A stretch of DNA of 21,069 nucleotides from a virus. Taxonomy: Duplodnaviria; Heunggongvirae; Uroviricota; Caudoviricetes. Below, piece after piece: positions 3,162 to 19,757 of the stretch. The DNA is taken from IMG/VR virus record IMGVR_UViG_2630968342_000014, one strand, 5' to 3'. The first letter of the stretch is position 1. Each line of letters opens with the position of its first letter. A program made the translations under genes and the position numbers. The notes beneath the pieces were generated by a model. The model did not search any database and was not told the origin of the DNA. It saw nothing but the letters and a program-made list of their open reading frames with translations.

Positions 3162-3923
3162 TCACTCTCCTTTGATGCCAATGTTTACAGCCTTGCAAGC
3201 CTCTTTGAGTACCCAGTCAACAGCGTCTTTCCATGCTCCGGTTTCGACTGGCGGATTTTCACGCTTAACCTGTTCATAGAAGCGCACTGCTTTAACCAGT
3301 CCTTCCGGTACTACTGGCGATGGCTGTTTAGCTTCTAAATCAGCAATTCTGTCAACCACGGCATCGACAGCATCAGAAAAGCCGAACCAGTTACTCCACT
3401 CCGGCCTATCCCCGGTTGCTGCAAAGTACATATCAGCTAAAGCAGACTCAGCATGGTCACGCTCATTAATGAGTTGCTCTTCGCTTTTCTCCAGTTCAGC
3501 AATGCGCTTACTCCCATCCGAGATAACACCTTCGTAATACTCACGCTGCTCGTTGAGTTTTGATTTTTCTGCCTCAAGCTCAACGCGCAGCTTCCCTACC
3601 GTTAGCGAAATTTCCTCGTTCTCCTGGTCGCGGCGTTTGATGTATTGCTGGTTCCTTTCCCGTTCATCCAGTAGTGCCAGCACGGTAGCCGGGTTAGCCT
3701 CTGCTATGAATTCAGCGTTTGCATAAGCCTGAGCATCTGTTTCAATCAGGCAGTTAATATGACATTCCGCAATCACGCCACCGGGTTCTCCTTTCCATTT
3801 TTGGCAAACAAAAACTCCTGTTAAATTGCCGTGCTGGTTAACAGATGTATGCCCTACGATGTAGCTTCCTTTAGTTGCTTTCTCTGCCTTTTCACGCAGT
3901 ACCTGATAGTTAATGTTGCTCAC
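3162..3923 (-). CDS. Ead/Ea22-like protein
   Basis: 253-aa ORF. GTG start at 3923 with AAGGAGG Shine-Dalgarno 6 nt upstream. Central coiled-coil-like acidic region (ELEAEKSKLNEQREYYEGV...) and overall architecture resemble Ea22-family early-left proteins of lambdoid phages; from memory. Confidence 0.6.
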   Translation of the reverse strand: MSNINYQVLREKAEKATKGSYIVGHTSVNQHGNLTGVFVCQKWKGEPGGVIAECHINCLIETDAQAYANAEFIAEANPATVLALLDERERNQQYIKRRDQENEEISLTVGKLRVELEAEKSKLNEQREYYEGVISDGSKRIAELEKSEEQLINERDHAESALADMYFAATGDRPEWSNWFGFSDAVDAVVDRIADLEAKQPSPVVPEGLVKAVRFYEQVKRENPPVETGAWKDAVDWVLKEACKAVNIGIKGE

Positions 3924-4356: not shown

Positions 4357-4715
4357 TTTTTATTCTTCGGTGCTTTCGGCATTACTGCCCAGTGAGTGAT
4401 ATTGACGTTTTCAAGGTCCCCGACCTGAAATGTCCACTGCCATTCTCCGGTTTCTTTTTGTCCCCAGGTGTACCAGAGAGAACGCCAGCCAATTAGCCAG
4501 CCTTCTCCGTTAGCATCAAATAACAGAACACTTTCATTTGCTGGCGGCAGTTCAGCTGACACTGGTATTATTTTGTTTTCCAGTGCCGCACATTTAGCTT
4601 CAAGCGCATCGAATTTACGTACCAGGTACTCAGCATTTGTTTCATTCACTTTCAGATCTCGTGGTACACATTTCCCGCGAAGAAACCCTTCCATTTCGAA
4701 AACATTCATGCGCAT
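4353..4715 (-). CDS. YfdS-like phage protein (120 aa) with DUF551-like C-terminal motif
   Basis: ATG at 4715. Predicted coiled-coil N-terminus; C-terminal ...NITHWAVMPKAP resembles the HW-x-PLP signature seen in the 2133-2966 protein. Same size as E. coli CPS-53 YfdS as I recall. Confidence 0.55.
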   Translation of the reverse strand: MRMNVFEMEGFLRGKCVPRDLKVNETNAEYLVRKFDALEAKCAALENKIIPVSAELPPANESVLLFDANGEGWLIGWRSLWYTWGQKETGEWQWTFQVGDLENVNITHWAVMPKAPKNKK

Positions 4716-7915: not shown

Positions 7916-7972
7916 TATGTGGTTTGAACGAGTAGCCAAGGAGTGCAAGGATTATCAAAAAAAGGAGGTTGT

Positions 7973-8863
7973 ATGGAAGACGCGCTTTACGCTTTTAATT
8001 ACACACAGAACCGGGACAAGTTATTTGCTAACTTGATTAGCATCATTGATGGAATCATTGCAGATGGAGTTGTCCGTGAAGAGGAGGTTCTTTACTTAGA
8101 TACATGGTTACTTGAAGCAAAGCAGATTATCAATAATGGAGTTATAAAAAGTCTATCTGCTCGGGTGTCGGATATTCTTGCGGATGGAATAATCACATCA
8201 GAAGAACGTGATGACCTTAAAAATAGCCTTCTCCAAATACAGAGGGAAATTCTTGATATCCCTGAAATTGATTTTTACTCCAAGGATGTAGATGTCCATT
8301 TACTTAATGGACTATGTAAAGGATTAATTGCTGATCGGAACTTAACTCAAGAAGAAATAAGATATCTTAATTGGTGGCTTGAGCAAAATGGAGCTTTGAA
8401 GAACAACTACCCAGGAAAAAAACTTTATGCACTTGTAAAGGAAATTCTTAAAGATGGTGTTATTACTGAAGATGAGAGTTTAACTCTACATAAGGCATTA
8501 GTAGACTTCACAGGATGTGACTTGGAAAGTGGGGTGGTGGATGGTTTGGCGACCAGGCTGCCTATTGATGTAGGGGCTTCGATAGAGTTAGAGGGTAAAA
8601 CCTATTGTCTTACAGGCACTTTTGTTGCAGGAAAGAGAGCCGTAGTTGAAAATTTGATTAAAAATGCTGGTGGGAACATCAGTAGTGGAATTACTCAAAA
8701 GTTGGATTTTTTAGTAATTGGGACGCTTTCCTCCCGTGATTGGAAATTCTCTAGTCACGGAAGGAAGATCGAAAAGGCTATATCTTATAGGGATGATAAT
8801 GGTGCAAAACTTAAAATTATTTCTGAAGAAATGCTTTTCGATGCATTACCAAGTTCGCGATGA
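7973..8863 (+). CDS. BRCT-domain protein with four N-terminal ~40-aa helical repeats (accessory gene)
   Basis: The track ORF starts at GTG 7943, but the ATG at 7973 has an AAAGGAGG Shine-Dalgarno. C-terminus (GKTYCLTGTFVAGKRAVVENLIKNAGGNISSGITQKLDFLVIGT...KLKIISEEMLFDAL) has the pattern of a BRCT domain like the C-terminus of NAD-dependent DNA ligase. N-terminal half carries four repeats of the form L-x-x-ILADG-x-IT-x-EE-x-x-L. AT-rich. The 3' end overlaps the cI 3' end. Confidence 0.7.
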   Translation: MEDALYAFNYTQNRDKLFANLISIIDGIIADGVVREEEVLYLDTWLLEAKQIINNGVIKSLSARVSDILADGIITSEERDDLKNSLLQIQREILDIPEIDFYSKDVDVHLLNGLCKGLIADRNLTQEEIRYLNWWLEQNGALKNNYPGKKLYALVKEILKDGVITEDESLTLHKALVDFTGCDLESGVVDGLATRLPIDVGASIELEGKTYCLTGTFVAGKRAVVENLIKNAGGNISSGITQKLDFLVIGTLSSRDWKFSSHGRKIEKAISYRDDNGAKLKIISEEMLFDALPSSR

Positions 8864-9667: not shown

Positions 9668-9916
9668 ATGACACCTGAGCAATTAGCCTTATCGGAGGCA
9701 ATCGCTCTGGCTGGTGGTCAATCAGAATTGGCTCGGAAGCTCACAGCCAGCAGCGGTCATTTAGTAAAGCAACAACATGTCTGGAACTGGTTGAACAGAG
9801 AAAAGCGTCCCCCTGCAAAGCTTTCGATATTCATTGAAAAGACCACTGGCATATCAAAAGAAAAATTACGTCCAGATATTTTTCAAAAGATTAAAGATTC
9901 ATCAGATGAAAAGTAA
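9668..9916 (+). CDS. cro: Cro-like / YdaS-like small HTH regulator
   Basis: 82-aa ORF divergent from cI. ATG at 9668 with AAAAAGGAGAAAG Shine-Dalgarno. HTH-like segment (GGQSELARKLTASSGHLVKQ). First gene of the rightward operon. Confidence 0.65.
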   Translation: MTPEQLALSEAIALAGGQSELARKLTASSGHLVKQQHVWNWLNREKRPPAKLSIFIEKTTGISKEKLRPDIFQKIKDSSDEK

Positions 9917-10496
9917 CCACAGTTTTAAGGAGATAGCCGTGGGTAAGCATCACTGGAAAATAGAAAAACAGCCTGAGTGGTACGTGAAAGCTGTCAGAAA
10001 AACTATCGCGGCGTTGCCGGGGGGTTACGCTGAAGCCGCTGACTGGCTGGATGTAACAGAGAACGCTTTATTCAATCGCCTTCGTGCCGATGGCGATCAG
10101 ATTTTCCCGCTGGGATGGGCAATGATTTTACAACGTGCTGGTGGAACTCACTTCATTGCTGACGCTGTGGCGCAGTCTGCAAATGGCGTCTTTGTGTCTC
10201 TTCCTGACGTCGAGGATGTGGACAACGCCGATATTAACCAGCGTCTGCTGGAAGTCATTGAACAGATCGGCAGTTATTCCAGACAGATTCGTTCAGCAAT
10301 CGAAGACGGTGTAGTGGAACCGCATGAGAAGACAGCAATTAACGACGAGCTGTACCTCTCAATTTCGAAGCTCCAGGAGCATGCAGCACTGGTCTACAAA
10401 ATCTTCTGCGCTCCAGAAAATAGTAACGCCCGCGAGTGTGCAGCTCCGGGCGTCGTGGCGTCGATTGCTTCTGGTTGTGGAGAAACTAACGCATGA
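9906..10496 (+). CDS. CII-like regulatory protein (YdaT / phage CP76-type, by position and size)
   Basis: The track ORF starts at TTG 9834; the in-frame ATG at 9906 (MKSNHSFKEIAVGK...) overlaps the cro-like stop. About 196 aa. Immediately downstream of cro as in YdaS/YdaT-type immunity modules. Family assignment from memory. Confidence 0.5.
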   Translation: MKSNHSFKEIAVGKHHWKIEKQPEWYVKAVRKTIAALPGGYAEAADWLDVTENALFNRLRADGDQIFPLGWAMILQRAGGTHFIADAVAQSANGVFVSLPDVEDVDNADINQRLLEVIEQIGSYSRQIRSAIEDGVVEPHEKTAINDELYLSISKLQEHAALVYKIFCAPENSNARECAAPGVVASIASGCGETNA

Positions 10497-10641
10497 ATAG
10501 TTTAACGGCAAATAACCGTTTGTCGCAACAGCTGGTGGTCAGCGTCGCTGAACACCTGTTGTTACGGCATGAATGCAGATTACCAAATCACCTGGCTGTA
10601 AGTAACCACAGAGAACTTTACCTGACTGTGGGGGGCGAGTT

Positions 10642-10821
10642 GTGCAGGAACTTAACCGCTGGTTTCGTGACGGAAGAGGACTTTATGTTCATGTTATTCG
10701 TTGGGAGCCAGAAACACAGCGCGTTATCTATCTTCGCAAAGACTACCCGCATGAGTGCTTTAGTCCTTTGTGGAAATTCAGGCGTGATTTTGTTGAGTGT
10801 GAAGGACCACCAGCATATTGA
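10642..10821 (+). CDS. Possible small ORF (59 aa, GTG start), not in the ORF track
   Basis: Hand translation: VQELNRWFRDGRGLYVHVIRWEPETQRVIYLRKDYPHECFSPLWKFRRDFVECEGPPAY, read from GTG at 10642 with a G-rich Shine-Dalgarno (GGGGGG at 10630-10635). Lies in a 600-bp gap that the track covers only with an implausible N-terminal extension of the rha ORF. Confidence 0.3.
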   Translation: MQELNRWFRDGRGLYVHVIRWEPETQRVIYLRKDYPHECFSPLWKFRRDFVECEGPPAY

Positions 10822-10907
10822 TTCTGCCATTTCGGGACGTTACACTGTCTCTGCACCTTATAAAGCGGGTGCCGGGATTGGCGTCCTGAAATTGATTACT
10901 GAGCATA

Positions 10908-10928
10908 ACCGCGCTCATGCGGTTTTTT
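10908..10928 (+). terminator. Candidate intrinsic terminator (tR1-like position)
   Basis: ACCGC-GCTCAT-GCGGT followed by TTTTTT: 5-bp GC-rich stem, 6-nt loop, U-tract. The reverse strand lacks a U-tract after the stem. Confidence 0.4.
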
Positions 10929-11098
10929 CGTGTCATGAGCATTGCTACGCCCAAATTATGGTGGGGCGTACAGGGCCGACTTCGGTCGGGCCGGGTTCGG
11001 TAGTCTCCGGTAACGCCAACCCTGTACGTCTCACCACCTCTGTGATTGGCGTCCCATGTGGTGAGTTTTCTAAAAAACTGACTACCGGGGCTGTCACT

Positions 11099-11656
11099 AT
11101 GACTACTCTCCCAACCCTCTCTCAACCTGAAATTGCCATCGTTGATGGTCAGGCTGTTACATCTTCTTTGGCTGTTGCTGACTTCTTCTCTAAACGTCAT
11201 GACGATGTTCTGAAAAAGATCCGCATTTTGGATTGTTCTCCAGAGTTTTGTGCCCGCAATTTTGCGGAGACATCAATTTTGGTACGCCAGCCCAACGGCG
11301 GTACTCGCAAACTACCTTGCTATCAAATAACCCGCGATGGCTTCGCGTTCCTTGCTATGGGCTTCACGGGTAAACGTGCTGCCCAGTTCAAAGAGGCATA
11401 CATCAATGCCTTTAACCAGATGGAGAAACAGCTTTCAAATCCCTCTGTACTGAGCGACGTTGCACATAACGCCAGCGTTCTCTATTCCTACATTTCATCA
11501 ATTCATCAGGTCTGGCTGCAGCAGCTTTATCCCATGTTGGCAAAAGCCGAATCCCCGCTGGCTGTAAGTCTGTATGACAGCATCAACGACGCGGCGCTAC
11601 TGGCCAGTCTCATAAATTTGTCGCTGAACCCTTCAGAGGTAAGGGGGCGCAAATGA
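11099..11656 (+). CDS. rha: Rha-family phage regulatory protein
   Basis: The N-terminus from the ATG at 11099 (MTTLPTLSQPEIAIVDGQAVTSSLAVADFFSKRHDDVLKKIRIL...ITRDGFAFLAMGFTGKRAAQFKEAYINAFNQME) matches the Phage_pRha domain pattern. The track ORF 10493-11656 fuses it to an upstream extension that looks non-coding. Confidence 0.8.
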   Translation: MTTLPTLSQPEIAIVDGQAVTSSLAVADFFSKRHDDVLKKIRILDCSPEFCARNFAETSILVRQPNGGTRKLPCYQITRDGFAFLAMGFTGKRAAQFKEAYINAFNQMEKQLSNPSVLSDVAHNASVLYSYISSIHQVWLQQLYPMLAKAESPLAVSLYDSINDAALLASLINLSLNPSEVRGRK

Positions 11657-11877
11657 TCCGGAATATTTTCAAACGGTTTACCAATCAGACTTTCCGTTGT
11701 CCTCGTCCTGGTCAGTGGTACACCACGCCTGCAGGGCATGTTCTACGTGTTAGCCTGGTTGACCGTGAATGTCAGAAGGTGGTTTGTGAACCGCTGGGCC
11801 GTAATTACCGCGTCAGTATGCCGCTTATAGCCTTTTGCTCCGGAAAAATGTTTAAGCGTCTGGGAGGTGTGGCGTGA
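11653..11877 (+). CDS. Hypothetical protein (74 aa)
   Basis: ATG at 11653 overlaps the rha stop (ATGA) with a GGGGG Shine-Dalgarno. No recognisable domain. Confidence 0.5.
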   Translation: MIRNIFKRFTNQTFRCPRPGQWYTTPAGHVLRVSLVDRECQKVVCEPLGRNYRVSMPLIAFCSGKMFKRLGGVA

Positions 11878-12173
11878 ACTGTTTTCAGTTTGTGTGCGGA
11901 TGTGCTTTCGATAACCCGATTCAGCGCCTGATTATGTTGCGTGTTTTGATGTCGGGTTCTTCAGACGGTGAAGGCGAGAGAGTTATTGATCATCAGGTGC
12001 TTGCTGATTTCTGCTGTTGTTCTAAGCAAGCGATATTCAGGGAAACCCTGGCACTGGAAAGAGCTGGTTATCTTCATATCCGAAAAATTGCAACGCTTAC
12101 TATTGATGCAAAAGCCAGACTACAACCTGCGCGTGGCTACACAATTCTCATGCTGCGGAAGGAGGTTGTATGA
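11874..12173 (+). CDS. Hypothetical small protein, possible winged-helix DNA-binding fold
   Basis: GTG at 11874 with GGAGGTG Shine-Dalgarno; alternative ATG at 11934. The 3' end overlaps the start of the replication gene. Fold guess only. Confidence 0.45.
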   Translation: MNCFQFVCGCAFDNPIQRLIMLRVLMSGSSDGEGERVIDHQVLADFCCCSKQAIFRETLALERAGYLHIRKIATLTIDAKARLQPARGYTILMLRKEVV

Positions 12174-13177
12174 GCCGTTACGCCCCCACACCGGAAGTTA
12201 TGGCTATTGGTCAAATTAATATTTCCGGCAATGTTACACCTGCGACCTGGTGGAAATATATTCGACTACCCAGTGGGCGTCCGGATGCGACGGCTATCGC
12301 TCTGCTTTCAGAGATCGTTTACTGGTACCGCCCGACAGAGGTCAGGGATGAGCACACCGGAGCGTTGCTGGGATATCGCAAGCGTTTTCAGGGCGACAAA
12401 CTGCAAAGAAGCTACCAGGCGTTTGCTGAGCAGTTTGGTTTCGGGAAAAGGGAAACCGCAGATGCGCTGAAGCGTCTGCGCGATGCAGGGTTTATTACTC
12501 TGGATTTACGCACGGTGGAAATGCTCGATGGGGTGAAATGCAGCAATATTTTGTTTGTCGGGATCAACCCACAGGCAATTGCGGCCATCACCACACCTTC
12601 TTCTGTTTCGCCAGAAAGTAACAGCAATAATGCAATCAGCGATACAGCTATTACGTTAAAACGGAACACCCCCCGACGTCATAACGGAACAGGGGATACG
12701 CCGAATGTTGATACAAATACAGAGATTACTACAGAGATTACTACAGAGATTACTACAGAGATTACAACGGAGACTAAAAACACTATTGGCGCATCCGCTG
12801 ACGCGTCTGCACCAGCGCGTTCTGCCCGACAGGAATATTCACCGGAATTTGAACAGGCCTGGCAGGAATATCCCAAACGTGCTGGTGGTAATTCAAAATC
12901 CGCCGCTTTTAAAGCCTGGAAAGCCCGAATCAGGGAAGGTGTGACACCCGAAACCATGCTCGACGGTGTGAAACGCTATGCCGCCTGGGTGCGTGTCTCT
13001 GGAAATACCGGTACCCAGTTCGTGAAGCAGGCGTCGACGTTCTTTGGTCCGGATCGTCATTTCGAAGAATCCTGGGAAGTTCCTGCGGTATCTGCAGTCA
13101 GACGCGAGGACCCGTACTTCAAAGCCAGTTACGACAACGTGGACTACAGCCAGATCCCGGCAGGATTCAGGGGGTGA
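12170..13177 (+). CDS. Phage replication initiation protein (O-like / replisome organiser) containing origin-like iterons
   Basis: ATG at 12170 with GGAGG Shine-Dalgarno. N-terminal DNA-binding-like region and C-terminal FEQAWQEYPKRAGG...AAFKAWKARI motif typical of phage replication-initiator C-termini. Four tandem 12-bp repeats inside the coding sequence, as in lambda O where ori lies within the gene. Confidence 0.7.
   Translation: MSRYAPTPEVMAIGQINISGNVTPATWWKYIRLPSGRPDATAIALLSEIVYWYRPTEVRDEHTGALLGYRKRFQGDKLQRSYQAFAEQFGFGKRETADALKRLRDAGFITLDLRTVEMLDGVKCSNILFVGINPQAIAAITTPSSVSPESNSNNAISDTAITLKRNTPRRHNGTGDTPNVDTNTEITTEITTEITTEITTETKNTIGASADASAPARSARQEYSPEFEQAWQEYPKRAGGNSKSAAFKAWKARIREGVTPETMLDGVKRYAAWVRVSGNTGTQFVKQASTFFGPDRHFEESWEVPAVSAVRREDPYFKASYDNVDYSQIPAGFRG
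12719..12775. repeat. Tandem 12-bp direct repeats (ACAGAGATTACT x4 plus a degenerate fifth): candidate ori iterons
   Basis: Read directly at 12719-12766 with a partial copy to 12775; encodes EITT-EITT-EITT-EITT in the replication protein. Position and periodicity are analogous to the lambda ori iterons within O. Confidence 0.7.
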
Positions 13178-13179
13178 GC

Positions 13180-13668
13180 ATGAGTCTTTTGAATGACGTT
13201 CAGAAATTCATTGAAGCCCATCCGGGGTGTACTTCCGGAGACATTGCGGATGCTTTTGCTGGTTACTCACGGCAGCGCGTTCTGCAGTCAGCAAGCAAGT
13301 TACGTCAGAGTGGGCGTGTGGCTCACCGTTGTGAAGGAGATACACGCAGACATTTCCCACGCCTGACTGAGAGAGCGCAGGATCCGGAACCACAACCAGT
13401 TCGTGAAACCAGACCTGTGCGCAATTTCTGTGTCGGCACTAACGACCCGCGGGTGATTTTGTGCCTGACCCGCCAGGCGGAAGAACTGGAGTCCAGGGGC
13501 TTATACCGTCGTGCTGCAACGGTGTGGATGGCGGCATTCCGTGAAAGCCACTCCCAGCCAGAACGAAACAATTTTCTGGCGCGTCGTGAACGGTGTTTAC
13601 GGAAAAGCAGTAAGCGGGCTGCATCAGGTGAAGAGTGGTATCTCTCAGGGAATTACGTGGGGGCTTAA
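13180..13668 (+). CDS. Hypothetical protein (about 162 aa), Arg-rich C-terminus
   Basis: The track ORF starts at GTG 13174; the ATG at 13180 has an AGGGGG Shine-Dalgarno. Occupies the position where lambdoid phages carry P/helicase-loader-type genes but is too short to be a DnaC/P homologue. No confident family. Confidence 0.45.
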   Translation: MSLLNDVQKFIEAHPGCTSGDIADAFAGYSRQRVLQSASKLRQSGRVAHRCEGDTRRHFPRLTERAQDPEPQPVRETRPVRNFCVGTNDPRVILCLTRQAEELESRGLYRRAATVWMAAFRESHSQPERNNFLARRERCLRKSSKRAASGEEWYLSGNYVGA

Positions 13669-14321
13669 TGAGTAATAAATATTGCCAGGCGCTGGCGGAA
13701 CTGCGGAACAAACCAGCCCATGAACTGAAGGAAGCGGGCGATCAGTGGCGCACGCCGGACAACATTTTCTGGGGAATTAACACTCTGTTTGGCCCGTTTG
13801 TTCTGGATCTGTTTACTGACGGTGATAACGCCAAATGTGCTGCGTATTACACGGCGGAAGACAACGCGTTGGCGCATGACTGGTCAGAACGCCTTGCGGA
13901 GCTTAAAGGTGCTGCCTTTGGTAATCCCCCATACAGCCGCGCCAGTCAGCATGAGGGGCAATACATCACCGGCATGCGTTACATCATGAAGCATGCCAGT
14001 GCCATGCGTGATAAAGGCGGGCGCTATGTTTTCCTGATCAAAGCTGCCACCAGCGAAGTGTGGTGGCCGGAAGATGCAGATCATATTGCTTTTATTCGCG
14101 GGCGTATTGGTTTTGAACTGCCTGCCTGGTTTATCCCGAAAGACGAAAAGCAGGTGCCAACAGGTGCTTTCTTCGCTGGTGCTATTGCTGTTTTCGACAA
14201 GACCTGGAAGGGAGCGGCAATCAGCTACATCGGGCGCGATGAACTTGAGGCATGTGGTGAGGCATTTCTGGCGCAGGTTCGCCAGCAGGCGGAAAAACTG
14301 GTCAGGGAGATGGCGGCATGA
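13668..14321 (+). CDS. Phage DNA N6-adenine methyltransferase (Dam-type)
   Basis: The ATG at 13668 overlaps the upstream stop (TAATG). Contains the N6-MTase catalytic tetrapeptide NPPY (AFGNPPYSR). The track ORF starts further upstream at 13635. Confidence 0.8.
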   Translation: MSNKYCQALAELRNKPAHELKEAGDQWRTPDNIFWGINTLFGPFVLDLFTDGDNAKCAAYYTAEDNALAHDWSERLAELKGAAFGNPPYSRASQHEGQYITGMRYIMKHASAMRDKGGRYVFLIKAATSEVWWPEDADHIAFIRGRIGFELPAWFIPKDEKQVPTGAFFAGAIAVFDKTWKGAAISYIGRDELEACGEAFLAQVRQQAEKLVREMAA

Positions 14322-17028: not shown

Positions 17029-17385
17029 ATGCGTGATATGTATGAAGTAATGGATCGTTGGGGAGCTTGGGCTGCTTCAGACAATAGCGGAGTGGACTGG
17101 CAGCCGATAGCGGCTGGTTTCAAGGGACTTTTACCTCATGGCAAAAAGTCACGGATTCAGTGTGATGATGACGAAGGCATCATGATAGACAGTTGTGTGG
17201 CTCGGTTGAGAAGGTATAAACCAGAGGAATATGAGCTCATCATCGCCCACTTTGTTATCGGTATCTCATTACGTACTATTGCGAAGAAGAGAAAATGCTC
17301 TGATGGCACAATTAGGAAGGAACTGCAAACTGCAATGGGGTTTGTTGACGGCTGTTTAGCAATGTTAGCTTATAGTATGGCATAA
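17029..17385 (+). CDS. Q: Late-gene antiterminator Q (small Q family)
   Basis: The ATG at 17029 has a GGAGAAAG Shine-Dalgarno (the track starts at TTG 17014). Motifs MDRWGAWAA, IAAGFKG, QCDDDEG and KCSDGTIRKELQ match the small Q-antiterminator family of phage 21/Rac-type prophages as I recall them. Confidence 0.8.
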   Translation: MRDMYEVMDRWGAWAASDNSGVDWQPIAAGFKGLLPHGKKSRIQCDDDEGIMIDSCVARLRRYKPEEYELIIAHFVIGISLRTIAKKRKCSDGTIRKELQTAMGFVDGCLAMLAYSMA

Positions 17386-18579
17386 AAAATAAAATAGATT
17401 TACTGCCGATTTTTCAAAAAAGACTGGGAACTGTTTATATCCAACGTAAATAAGGCCTCCATAAAACATGGCTGATGCGAGATATTTAACAGTTCTCATC
17501 CTTTTTTTAGCTTTATCAATCAAACCTGTAATGCTACTCTTAATACTATCTGCATTATCTTTGATTTCTTTATTTTCTTCAAACTTTAAATACTTATCGA
17601 AAGCGGACTCCACTCGAGAACGTAAGTTGTCGAATGTTTCATTGAATATCTCAATAGAAATGTAATTGACTTTTTTTATCATCCAAAGTCCTGCGATAAT
17701 CAATATTGCTTCGGTTGTTTCATTAGCCTTCACTAAGCCACCAGCAGCTATTAATGCACCGGGAATAGTCAATGCTTTTGTCTGATTAGATGATATGAAT
17801 TCGTTAATTTTACTCGTGAACTCAAGATTTTTCTCATCGAGTTCGTTAAGAATTTTATTTACAGAAAACCTCTTTGTGTAAATCTCATATAGTTCATCAT
17901 ATTTTTTCCTGACGAGTTCAGTAGAGTTAAGCAAGTCAAAGAAATTGAACGTACCATTTGCTTTAAATACTTCGTTTATGGCTGAGCGTATAACGAGCTT
18001 GCGCTCGCTTTTGTGTAAATCATTGATTTTTATTGTGTCGAGAAGCTCCTTTATAATTTCATATTTAAGAGACGAGTTCGATAAGCGATTAATCTCGCTA
18101 TATTGTAAAAAATGCGTGAGTTCGACTGTATAACTTTTGTCTTCATTGGTGAAAAATAAGACAGAGCAGTCACTGTTATGATGATCAGCAATTAATGAAA
18201 GGATATCTTTCCACATAAAGAAAATATGGATTTTTTCGATGCTTTCATTCTTAGAAGTAGGGAGTATTAACGGCGTTCCGATGATATAATTTTTCGGAAG
18301 AGCGTTTTGGGTGTTTACTCTAGACCAAAAAGACTCAACATTCTCATAAATTATAGCGTCATCCCAAGATGAAGCTTGGCGATCTAGCCAAATTTCATTA
18401 TTTTCGATGCAGGTTGTTGCCTTTTTATAACCTATAGATTGTAACAGTCTAATTATTTCAGAACTATTTACAATAACAATGCTTTCTTCAAGACTTATGA
18501 CAGTGTAGTAGCCCTCAACTCTGCTTGAGGCTCCGTTAATAATCTGCGCTAATCTTGATAAGTCATCAGCAATTGTCAT
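17365..18579 (-). CDS. Membrane protein (404 aa): about 265-aa soluble N-terminal domain plus C-terminal transmembrane segments; second gene of the AT-rich cassette
   Basis: The ATG at 18579 lies 2 nt after the upstream stop (coupled). Hydrophobic stretches ALTIPGALIAAGGLV, AILIIAGLWMI and YLASAMFYGGLIYVGY near the C-terminus. AT-rich. The 3' end overlaps the 3' end of Q by 21 bp (convergent). Confidence 0.65.
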   Translation of the reverse strand: MTIADDLSRLAQIINGASSRVEGYYTVISLEESIVIVNSSEIIRLLQSIGYKKATTCIENNEIWLDRQASSWDDAIIYENVESFWSRVNTQNALPKNYIIGTPLILPTSKNESIEKIHIFFMWKDILSLIADHHNSDCSVLFFTNEDKSYTVELTHFLQYSEINRLSNSSLKYEIIKELLDTIKINDLHKSERKLVIRSAINEVFKANGTFNFFDLLNSTELVRKKYDELYEIYTKRFSVNKILNELDEKNLEFTSKINEFISSNQTKALTIPGALIAAGGLVKANETTEAILIIAGLWMIKKVNYISIEIFNETFDNLRSRVESAFDKYLKFEENKEIKDNADSIKSSITGLIDKAKKRMRTVKYLASAMFYGGLIYVGYKQFPVFFEKSAVNLFYFLCHTIS

Positions 18580-18581
18580 TA

Positions 18582-19757
18582 TTAGCTGTCTCTATATCTT
18601 TTGAGTTCATCATAATTTGCCTGACTCAATTTTATCACAATTTCGCATTTGTTGTCAGTGAGAATTACAGGCTTATTTGACTTTTCGTCTCCAATAGCTC
18701 CACGCATTATTTTCAACTTAAAATTATTGTCGTTATCTGCCACTTCAATTGTAAGCGCGCTTTCAGCTGCTTTAGGAGTTGGTTCAAATTGAGGGTCAAT
18801 CTGGAAACCATTAAGATTAACAAAATCGACAAACGTTCCCTTACATTTGTGTGAATCAGTCAGGCATGAGTCAATTATTTTTGAAATATCCTCTATCTTA
18901 ACGGACTTATTTCCGTGTTTATCTTTTGATTTTTTTTCCAGTAAGGATTTAACTTCATTGTCAATAGTATCACGCAGTACACGACCGAGTGAGTTTTTAC
19001 TAGCAAAAATATCTATAGCACTGAATAATTGCTGAATGCTTCTTTTATTGTCCGAATCATGTCGGCAACCTAATGAGTCTTTGAAAAAATCGCTTTTAGA
19101 TTTACCTTGCAAGAAATGTACATATGAGTCACCCTTGTTTTCTGGATAACTGGCTTCGAATAAAGTTAAATCGAACATCGCAGCCTGCCGTAAGGCATCG
19201 GTATTAATTGGATTTAATCTTGTTGGGGTCAACTTATCCGAATCAAAGTCATAGGCGCTTTGTTTATCAACCATTACGATTAGAAGTTTCCCCAAATCCT
19301 CTGGTTCGGTAGACTTATAGTGGATGAAAACAACGCTCCCCCCCTGAAGTTGGGCAACTCTCGATTCGTTATTAGCATTATGTTTAAGCTTCTCTATTAT
19401 AGCTCTAGATAAATCAATGAATTCATTATTTTTATTAATGTATTTTTTTAGGATCGTAGGAATGGATGAAGGGTTGTGATCTGAGTCTAGGAAGTTATGA
19501 AATTTGTTTTTTCGGCTAAATTTTTTCTCAATTCTGGTTATGAATTCAGATGTGACTTCATTTTTTAGATCCCAAACTTCACCTAATCGATAATCAAATG
19601 CTCTTGAATCATTTTTTTCAAGATTTGCTGTTACAGCACCAATAGGAAAGTACGATTGTTTGCCCAGCACTACAACATGAGGCGTGGCACCGCATTTATC
19701 GCAAGCTACAGTTGGGTCGTCAAGAACATTGCCACATTCTAAACAAGTTATATCCAT
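18582..19757 (-). CDS. Zinc-ribbon plus NdpA/YejK-like (nucleoid-associated protein family) domain protein; first gene of the AT-rich cassette
   Basis: ATG at 19757. N-terminal C-x2-C-x12-C-x2-C zinc ribbon (CLECGNVLDDPTVACDKCG). Central region GGSVVFIHY...LLIVMVD...YVHFLQGKSKSDFFKDSLG parallels the E. coli YejK/NdpA blocks GGFVLFCHY...YLTFLKG...DFFMDFLG, recalled from memory. Strongly AT-rich with A/T-ending codons. Confidence 0.65.
   Translation of the reverse strand: MDITCLECGNVLDDPTVACDKCGATPHVVVLGKQSYFPIGAVTANLEKNDSRAFDYRLGEVWDLKNEVTSEFITRIEKKFSRKNKFHNFLDSDHNPSSIPTILKKYINKNNEFIDLSRAIIEKLKHNANNESRVAQLQGGSVVFIHYKSTEPEDLGKLLIVMVDKQSAYDFDSDKLTPTRLNPINTDALRQAAMFDLTLFEASYPENKGDSYVHFLQGKSKSDFFKDSLGCRHDSDNKRSIQQLFSAIDIFASKNSLGRVLRDTIDNEVKSLLEKKSKDKHGNKSVKIEDISKIIDSCLTDSHKCKGTFVDFVNLNGFQIDPQFEPTPKAAESALTIEVADNDNNFKLKIMRGAIGDEKSNKPVILTDNKCEIVIKLSQANYDELKRYRDS

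Follow-up and report, generated by a model that had tools for sequence, protein, structure and literature searches.

Repeats within the replication initiator gene

The DNA analyzed here is the IMG/VR virus record IMGVR_UViG_2630968342_000014 (Caudoviricetes), a stretch of 21,069 nucleotides that is called the window at its full length and that belongs to an E. coli lambdoid prophage integrated beside mlrA. Its early-right operon contains a replication initiator gene (12170-13177, + strand), and the coding sequence of this gene harbors two adjoining sets of repeats, which we consider a candidate replication origin; all the evidence is computational. When the initiator gene was used as the query, the prophage of strain G1/2 proved to be 99.9% identical. 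The full protein matched phrog_270, "replication initiation protein" (E 9.3e-77, residues 2-334), and, of the 8000 candidates scored, 2169 were homologous at E ≤ 1e-5; the exact window protein was absent from the protein collection searched. Neither Pfam (E ≤ 0.01) nor NCBIfam gave a match to the full protein, RepA_N (PF06970) and Rep_3 included, and Phage_rep_O (PF04492) was absent at Pfam thresholds, the isolated N-terminal domain (N-domain) giving just HTH_36 (E 0.022). According to AlphaFold, the first ~145 residues form a confident winged helix (predicted local distance difference test 84.6), and residues ~145-220 are predicted to be disordered. The layout is that of a DNA-binding domain, a linker with the repeats in its DNA, and a partner domain. 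The features of this region are the following:

12170-13177 (+): replication initiator gene, 335 aa, from the open reading frame (ORF) list; phrog_270
12170-12604 (+): N-terminal winged-helix domain, putatively origin-binding, aa 1-145
12629-12651 (+): iteron slot a, vestigial; aligned to the Serratia/Yersinia iteron and degenerate in the E. coli lineage
12652-12674 (+): iteron b, TACGTTAAAACGGAACACCCCCC; near-palindromic arms TACGTT/AACGGA and a C-rich tail
12675-12696 (+): iteron c, GACGTCATAACGGAACAGGGGA; 23 bp past iteron b and in a different frame
12697-12717 (+): iteron d or junction element, TACGCCGAATGTTGATACAAA; family consensus TACGTTGAAACGTGAGACAAA; abuts the 12-mers
12718-12729, 12730-12741, 12742-12753, 12754-12765 (+): four perfect 12-mers, TACAGAGATTAC; proposed unwinding and loading site
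12766-12777 (+): degenerate fifth 12-mer, AACGGAGACTAA, then an A-run; from the repeat scan and DNA alignment
12783-13177 (+): coding region of the C-terminal helical domain and tail, SfV orf39/K-12 YfdO type; presumed to recruit the host replisome
13174/13180-13668 (+): PerC-family (YfdN-like) regulator gene; PF06069, phrog_1324

Tandem Repeats Finder (TRF) reported a single array at 12718-12773, with a period of 12, 4.7 copies, 95% matches, and a score of 98. With at most one mismatch, TACAGAGATTAC was found four times in the window versus 0.13 expected, and none of 100 shuffles reached four matches. The array is situated in the coding DNA of the disordered linker, in frame within ORF 12170-13177 (translation TEIT TEIT TEIT TEIT TETK), and close E. 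coli relatives differ in the number of 12-mers (1, 2, or 4). The original prediction had described four perfect repeats plus a degenerate fifth; this is true of the 11-mer ACAGAGATTAC, whereas the 12-mer ACAGAGATTACT as written, in the register beginning at 12719, has three perfect copies only and a fourth that ends in A (ACAGAGATTACA). Its comparison with lambda, placing origin-like repeats inside an O-like gene, agrees with the position of the repeats in linker-coding DNA, the disordered linker, and the separate C-terminal domain. Rfam gave no match in 11500-14000 at E ≤ 1, so no RNA element was recognized there, and promoter and terminator scans of the array, which performed at chance level, returned none. 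No origin context for the 11-mer, in either orientation, was found in the searchable literature, the main phage-replication-module review lying outside that search.

The slots upstream of the array were placed by DNA alignment of the window with relatives from E. coli, Serratia, Yersinia, Rosenbergiella, Xenorhabdus, and Providencia and with Acinetobacter phage IME-AB2. Their spacings in the window are 23, 22, and 21 bp, after which the 12-mers begin. Iteron b aligns with the TACGTTGAAACGTAAC-CCCTCC iterons of relatives, and the junction at which ...GAGACAAA meets TACAGAGA is kept across phyla. The segments ACGTTAAAACGGAAC (12653) and ACGTCATAACGGAAC (12676) are spaced by 23 bp and read in two different frames (TLKRNT vs. 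RRHNGT), which argues that the repeat matters as DNA. The putative recognition helix of the N-domain corresponds to aa ~93-106 of the window protein, and its residues vary with the iteron arms across lineages: SKRETTDALKRLR pairs with TACGTT/AACGTA arms, SKKQATEAVKALE with TCCCT/AGGGA, ESRRSVKAAFDRLE with TACAAA/TTTGTA, and GKRQVREAIIRLE with TGGCGC/GCGCCA. Since helix and arms change together and the 12-mer does not, the 22-23-bp repeats fit as the iterons of the initiator. The 12-mers, which had been described as the iterons, are therefore probably not the sites bound by the initiator; the upstream dyad repeats, missed earlier, fit classical iterons. Since the 12-mers show no co-variation with the iteron arms, a variant that treats them as half-iterons recognized by the same specificity residues was rejected.

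Conservation of the two-part structure across phyla

Relatives were picked solely by two peptide motifs of the N-domain, with one genome per species, giving 80 loci from Enterobacterales, Acinetobacter, Bacillales, Lachnospiraceae, other Clostridia, Syntrophomonas, Chloroflexota, cyanobacteria, Atribacterota, and a Rickettsiaceae metagenome-assembled genome (MAG). Most of these loci have a two-part structure straight after the part of the gene coding for the N-domain. The first part is composed of lineage-specific 22-23-bp repeats in 2 to 6.6 copies, each with a short dyad, an A-rich center, and a C/G-rich tail, such as TACGTTGAAACGTAACCCCTCC in Serratia, TACAAAATTTTGTACCACCCTCC in Coprococcus, and CCTATGGCGCTACAGCGCCAGA in Chloroflexota. 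The second consists of a junction like ...GAGACAAA followed by one to five copies of TACAGAGA[T/A]TAC. With at most one mismatch, the 12-mer was present in 60 of the 76 distinct loci, 479-662 nt into the gene, and as a control the flanks (932 kb, both strands) contained a single match. A TRF array of ~22, 45, or 67 bp was detected within 230 nt upstream of the 12-mer in 34 of these 60 loci.

At least 120 IMG/VR contigs contain an exact match to the 24-mer TACAGAGAWTACTACAGAGAWTAC, for which the chance expectation with 22 specified bases is, by our arithmetic, far below one. Among the matches listed, it was found in 75 distinct contexts on contigs with a GC content of 0.29-0.61, with two, three, and four copies in 42, 27, and 6 contexts, respectively. 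Enough upstream DNA was available in 77 of the listed contigs, and the N-domain is encoded upstream of the 24-mer in 57 of them. In the remaining 20, this place is taken by different winged helix-turn-helix (wHTH) N-domains, unseen by the family hidden Markov model (HMM) and by Pfam; these contigs possess ~22-bp repeats of their own, with the 12-mers in the same relative position. The N-domain family comprises 2,338 clusters at 50% identity (E ≤ 1e-3), N-domain identity across phyla is 35-60%, and a double TE[IN]T-like motif near residue 176 was present in 79 of 132 representatives of at least 230 aa. The C-terminal domains are swapped freely within the family and include DnaB_2, DUF6017, DnaA_N, Phg_2220_C, and the type of the window, which has no Pfam match. 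Functional relatives also carry the repeats: the cultured Acinetobacter phage IME-AB2 has three copies of GTACCACCCTCCTACGTTnnAAC, then three of TACAGAGAMTAC, followed by a gene for a DnaB-type helicase, and in the cultured Bacillus phage phIS3501, three iterons precede TACAAAGATTAC TACAGAGATTAC, with a DnaC-type gene coming next.

Some members of the family are found outside typical phage contexts. In three Coprococcus/Lachnospiraceae loci (L063, L073, and L074; ~3486-3634), 6.6 copies of TACAAAATTTTGTACCACCCTCC form very regular arrays, the initiators have a DUF6017 C-terminal domain, and conjugation or partition genes adjoin in some of the loci; from this context, the same origin type would also serve plasmids or integrative elements. 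In a Chloroflexota MAG (L025, 3001-4308) and in Megaira plasmids (H142-H146), the N-domain is fused to DnaA_N, and Rickettsiales-plasmid proteins of this build are annotated as "DnaA-like protein". A link to the "DnaA-like" initiators of Rickettsia plasmids, whose genes are used in Rickettsia shuttle vectors, was not established, as just the Megaira plasmids matched.

Constraint on the 12-mer at the DNA level

The peptide TE[INT]T was sought in the translated linkers blind to codons (n = 69). Threonine was encoded by ACA in 67 of the 69 cases (background 40%) and glutamate by GAG in 65 (background 41%), a bias with a Fisher p of ~1e-20 in samples that are not phylogenetically independent. The 12 nt after the first match, which were not selected by the match itself, gave the same consensus. 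Third codon positions (A4, G7, T10) are conserved like the rest, T10 being the most conserved column of all. The variation that does occur affects codon position 2 (ATT/AAT/ACT, encoding I/N/T) or consists of a G-to-A change turning glutamate into lysine, a pattern that is the opposite of protein-level selection. Additionally, eight loci contain nine extra copies of the 12-mer in another frame, where they are translated, for example, as YKEY (TACAAAGAATAC) or DRDY (GACAGAGATTAC). By these comparisons, the 12-mer is constrained as DNA, beyond its peptide.

These results bear on the possibility that the array is a mere coding microsatellite, i.e., a slippage-prone (TEIT)n linker without any DNA function. 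The in-frame position, the copy number of 1, 2, or 4 in close E. coli relatives, and the predicted disorder of the linker would all suit such a repeat. It is nevertheless very hard to reconcile with synonymous codons that are fixed across phyla, third positions that stay conserved while amino-acid-changing positions vary, off-frame copies, and an exact 24-mer in at least 120 viral contigs with a GC content of 0.29-0.61, and we regard it as highly improbable.

Downstream genes and module exchange

The product of the gene following the initiator (13174/13180-13668) matched PerC (PF06069; 36.2 bits vs. a cut-off of 22.6, E 7.3e-9) and phrog_1324, "transcriptional activator" (E 9.5e-78). The RefSeq name is yfdN, and NCBIfam gave just a sub-threshold match to ANR. 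No AAA+ domain, Phage_lambda_P domain, or PADLOC match was found in this protein, and on these grounds its candidacy as a defense or loader protein was rejected. The original prediction had described this gene as short and unlike P or DnaC, which agrees with the PerC match; its further proposal of an uncharacterized loader is unsupported, the product being a PerC-family regulator. It was also correct in stating that no helicase loader is recognizable, since genes like DnaC, P, or DnaB are lacking among the scanned ORFs of the window and among the ORFs annotated in the 99.9%-identical strain.

In E. coli prophages that share a ~90%-identical N-domain and the origin region (with one or two 12-mers), the initiator gene is followed by genes encoding an IstB/DnaC-like ATPase and a DnaB-like helicase. 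Homology of the window to these loader-bearing prophages extends over 11694-13078 and that to phage SfV from 12783 to at least 14400 (93.5% DNA identity), the latter starting five bases past the array. Judged from these alignments, the window is a recombinant in which a cassette of N-domain plus origin has been joined to the C-terminal tail, PerC, and Dam genes of the SfV type. Among the E. coli relatives (L087-L090) and the window, at least three alternative C-terminal tails were observed (...SGFSEQDYG..NW, ...GAMSDKFGKSSNKLTF, and ...YDNVDYSQIPAGFRG); the last precedes the PerC-like gene, and at least one of the other two precedes DnaC/DnaB-like genes. Because the tail differs between the loader and PerC layouts, we infer that the last ~35 residues set partner specificity.

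Two cultured phages, SfV and mEp460, also have the loader-less block, as do Stx2 phage genomes, among them the Eru6 representative Stx2a_WGPS2. Rather than being unique to this prophage, the layout is shared with viable phages of the SfV/Stx Eru6 type. Across the family, a recognizable helicase or loader was encoded in the two downstream ORFs in ~15 of 63 loci, as obtained by crude ORF picking. Since the loader-less layout occurs in viable, initiator-only phages, recruitment of the host DnaB/DnaC, as the original prediction had proposed, is plausible. In E. coli prophages and Stx-type phages, N-domain plus origin is an exchangeable cassette with a breakpoint straight after the array, and such swaps can build loader-less "initiator-only" modules, whose replication is unstudied (PMC8951638).

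Proposed origin and alternative explanations

No 40-60-bp stretch of the initiator gene is less stable than the 12-mer array (dG -44.9 vs. a mean of -57.2, standard deviation (SD) 4.1, i.e., 3 SD), which ranks within the top 0.15-0.4% least stable DNA of the early operon. In a meta-profile of 61 loci, the array was less stable than the gene by 1.6-1.9 SD, the iterons were stabler than average, and the array was the least stable 30-nt window in 25 of the 61. The original observation of origin-like repeats in the initiator gene is confirmed, and its interpretation is partly supported, as an in-gene origin in the style of lambda and pSK41, situated in an initiator-only recombinant module. We propose, with a probability of roughly 60%, that 12629-12777 is a two-part replication origin inside the linker-coding DNA of the initiator. 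Dimers of the N-terminal winged-helix domain would bind three to four iterons of ~22-23 bp, which consist of the dyad TACGTT..AACGKA and a C/G-rich tail and are spaced by about two helical turns, and would build an O-some-like complex. The abutting head-to-tail TACAGAGATTAC array, the constant element, would serve for duplex opening and helicase delivery, much as the AT-rich tract does in ori-lambda or the 13-mers do in iteron plasmids. A conserved part of the initiator may recognize the 12-mer by its sequence, possibly in single-stranded form, and the TEIT peptide would be a by-product of translating origin DNA. The C-terminal domain of the SfV orf39/YfdO type, together with its tail, would recruit the host DnaB-DnaC directly, as suggested by the fact that neither a phage loader nor a helicase is encoded.

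More tentatively, and at somewhat less than even odds, TACAGAGA[T/A]TAC may be a pan-bacterial element of origins that acts sequence-specifically: in an initiator family of about 2,000 clusters (50% identity) unrecognized by Pfam and NCBIfam, it would mark where unwinding or helicase entry takes place. This family is represented in phages, plasmids, and integrative elements of Proteobacteria, Firmicutes, Chloroflexota, and cyanobacteria. The 12-mer stays constant while the iterons, N-domain specificity, C-terminal domains, and helicase partners vary, which points to a conserved feature of the initiator or a universal replisome component as its reader. The recurrence of the same 12-mer at the same spot across many phyla is unexpected and appears to be undescribed.

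Several observations weigh against the proposed origin. The C-terminal domain had no significant structural or Pfam match, and direct recruitment of host DnaB-DnaC by this domain, although plausible, is drawn from analogy. Other segments are sometimes less stable than the array in AT-rich hosts, and AT-richness alone fails to explain the conservation of the 12-mer; as the 12-mer is conserved even in such hosts, sequence-specific reading by something conserved is suggested. The sole match to the DnaA box TTWTNCACA in the window is at 415, with none near the proposed origin, and a DnaA-dependent origin was accordingly rejected. Just two of the window iterons (b and c) are well preserved, slot a being vestigial and d a variant, and the twin G1/2 prophage bears several pseudogenes elsewhere in the element; for these two reasons, the module could be inactive. 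Finally, the 12-mers hold one reading frame in 45 of 46 multi-copy loci, so a contribution of the peptide is conceivable.

The roles of the two repeat types could also be reversed, with the 12-mers being the double-strand sites (iterons) of the initiator and the 22-23-bp dyads serving, e.g., autoregulation or handcuffing by dimers. Both the N-domain and the 12-mer are unusually conserved across phyla, a conserved protein on a conserved site would be parsimonious, and the 12-mer repeats are direct and tandem. This arrangement is unlikely, though, given that the 12-mer also occurs behind N-domains outside the family HMM and that the recognition-helix residues track the arms of the 22-bp repeats, not the 12-mer. 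A head-to-tail spacing of 12 bp would rotate successive sites by ~50 degrees and leave little room for winged-helix dimers, and dyad 22-mers at two-turn spacing have the classical iteron geometry. Another alternative, which the partial decay of the window iterons would favor, is a dead remnant in which recombination replaced the cognate DnaC-like and DnaB-like genes and left an initiator that cannot load a helicase. In its favor, the E. coli relatives sharing the N-domain and origin always have IstB-like and DnaB-like genes downstream, the twin prophage has pseudogenes, and the N-domain of the window is absent from the cultured E. coli phages of the phage collection. Yet the initiator ORF and the entire early-right operon are intact, the iteron pattern of the window is common to relatives bearing DnaC/DnaB genes, and the block of C-terminal domain, tail, PerC, and Dam is that of SfV and mEp460, both cultured, and of Stx2 phage genomes, all of which lack loader genes. 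Moreover, two iterons and an AT-rich tract suffice for unwinding in lambda (PMC7466680). We therefore consider a dead remnant rather improbable and retain the two-part origin as the preferred explanation.

If this two-part origin is real, a simple DNA signature would pinpoint origins in thousands of uncultivated phages, plasmids, and integrative elements across phyla. Such a signature could be used for annotation, for shuttle vectors in hard-to-transform groups (Lachnospiraceae, Acinetobacter), and for origin-decoy phage resistance. It also raises the question of which factor recognizes a 12-base word preserved between E. coli and Bacillus amid changing surroundings.

Comparison with known replication systems

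Iteron-plasmid origins such as RK2 oriV, F, and pPS10 combine iterons with a 13-mer unwinding element, and the RK2 initiator also binds the unwound strand. The window resembles them in having iterons phased at ~22 bp beside tandem 12-mers in the least stable DNA. It differs in lacking Rep_3 and a DnaA box near the origin, in the location of the origin within coding sequence, and in the conservation of the 12-mer across phyla.

When compared to lambda O/ori-lambda (and to O/ori of 933W and P27), the candidate origin likewise lies mid-gene, between the parts encoding an N-terminal DNA-binding domain and a C-terminal partner domain (PMC7466680), and consists of dyad iterons with an easily melted tract on one side, here 12652-12717 and 12718-12777. 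Lambda O also binds single-stranded DNA (PMC7466680). In contrast to lambda, the window has no Phage_rep_O match, no P- or DnaC-type gene downstream, and a different iteron sequence, and instead of a generic AT-rich stretch, its melted tract consists of 12-mers with a conserved sequence. Likewise, the RepA_N initiators (pSK41 Rep; PDB 4pta) have central in-gene origin repeats between modular N-terminal and C-terminal domains; in pSK41 Rep, the origin is located in the central, dispensable linker-coding part of rep, and the N-terminal domain and origin are exchanged as a cassette (PMC5703833). The corresponding modularity in the family of the window is seen in the C-terminal domains swapped among relatives and in the breakpoint five bases after the array. 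In contrast, the window lacks PF06970, its repeats are different, its C-terminal domain is unrelated by sequence, and the hosts of its family include Proteobacteria and phages. DnaD/DnaB primosomal proteins and the "DnaD-like" replisome organizers of phages are further related systems.

The closest gene arrangement is that of SfV orf39-orf40-dam (equivalent to Eru6, Stx2a_WGPS2) and of K-12 CPS-53 yfdO-yfdN, which share with the window the C-terminal domain and tail, PerC, and Dam, and the lack of a loader or helicase. The SfV linker contains at 4430-4585 (locus L002) about five GTGCAnnAnnTTCAC-type dyad repeats at 21-24-bp spacing, followed by 2.5 tandem copies of the 12-bp GAACCAGTCAAA; this segment is likely the SfV origin, built on the same two-part plan, and the GenBank record has no such annotation. 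SfV differs from the window in its N-domain (HTH_36, PF13730), its iterons (GTGCA..TTCAC), and its 12-mer (GAACCAGTCAAA). In BLASTP, the alignment to SfV orf39 started at query residue 81 and was weak until the C-terminal ~130 aa. A literature search on SfV orf39 returned no relevant paper, and the paper on the Eru scheme describes the replication proteins of Eru phages as uncharacterized and their mode of replication as not known (PMC8951638).

Neighboring genes and additional observations

The remaining genes of the region are arranged as follows:

9668-9916: cro-like gene, early-right operon
9834-10496: cII-like gene, early-right operon
10493-11656 (+): Ash + Rha fusion protein, 387 aa, between the cII-like and replication genes
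11653-11877: small ORF, early-right operon
11874-12173 (+): small ORF, 99 aa, overlapping the initiator start
after the PerC-family gene, in this order: Dam, LexA-like, RusA, KilA-N, DUF968, and Q genes

The placement of the Ash + Rha fusion gene corresponds to the arrangement that defines the Stx-phage types Eru6, Eru7, and Eru9. The 99-aa ORF immediately upstream of the initiator matched the N-terminal 90 residues of phrog_4617, "replication initiation protein" (E 4e-29), and showed a weak match to the O-like phrog_391. It is also present in E. coli relatives (L088-L090) and is, in this respect, a conserved partner of the initiator. Because it does not resemble the initiator, it was ruled out as a paralogue; possible identities are a regulator and a second, truncated origin-binding protein.

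Two antisense genes (17365-19757, - strand) separate Q from the lysis region. One encodes a 404-aa protein without a Pfam or PADLOC match and the other a 391-aa nucleoid-associated protein of the NA37 type (PF04245, E 1e-23); the pair is situated in the least stable, AT-rich DNA of the window and resembles a moron. A further gene at 7943-8863 (+ strand), adjoining the cI-like repressor, encodes a BRCT-domain protein with a weak PADLOC match to PDC-S48 (E 3e-7) and may be a prophage-borne defense gene.

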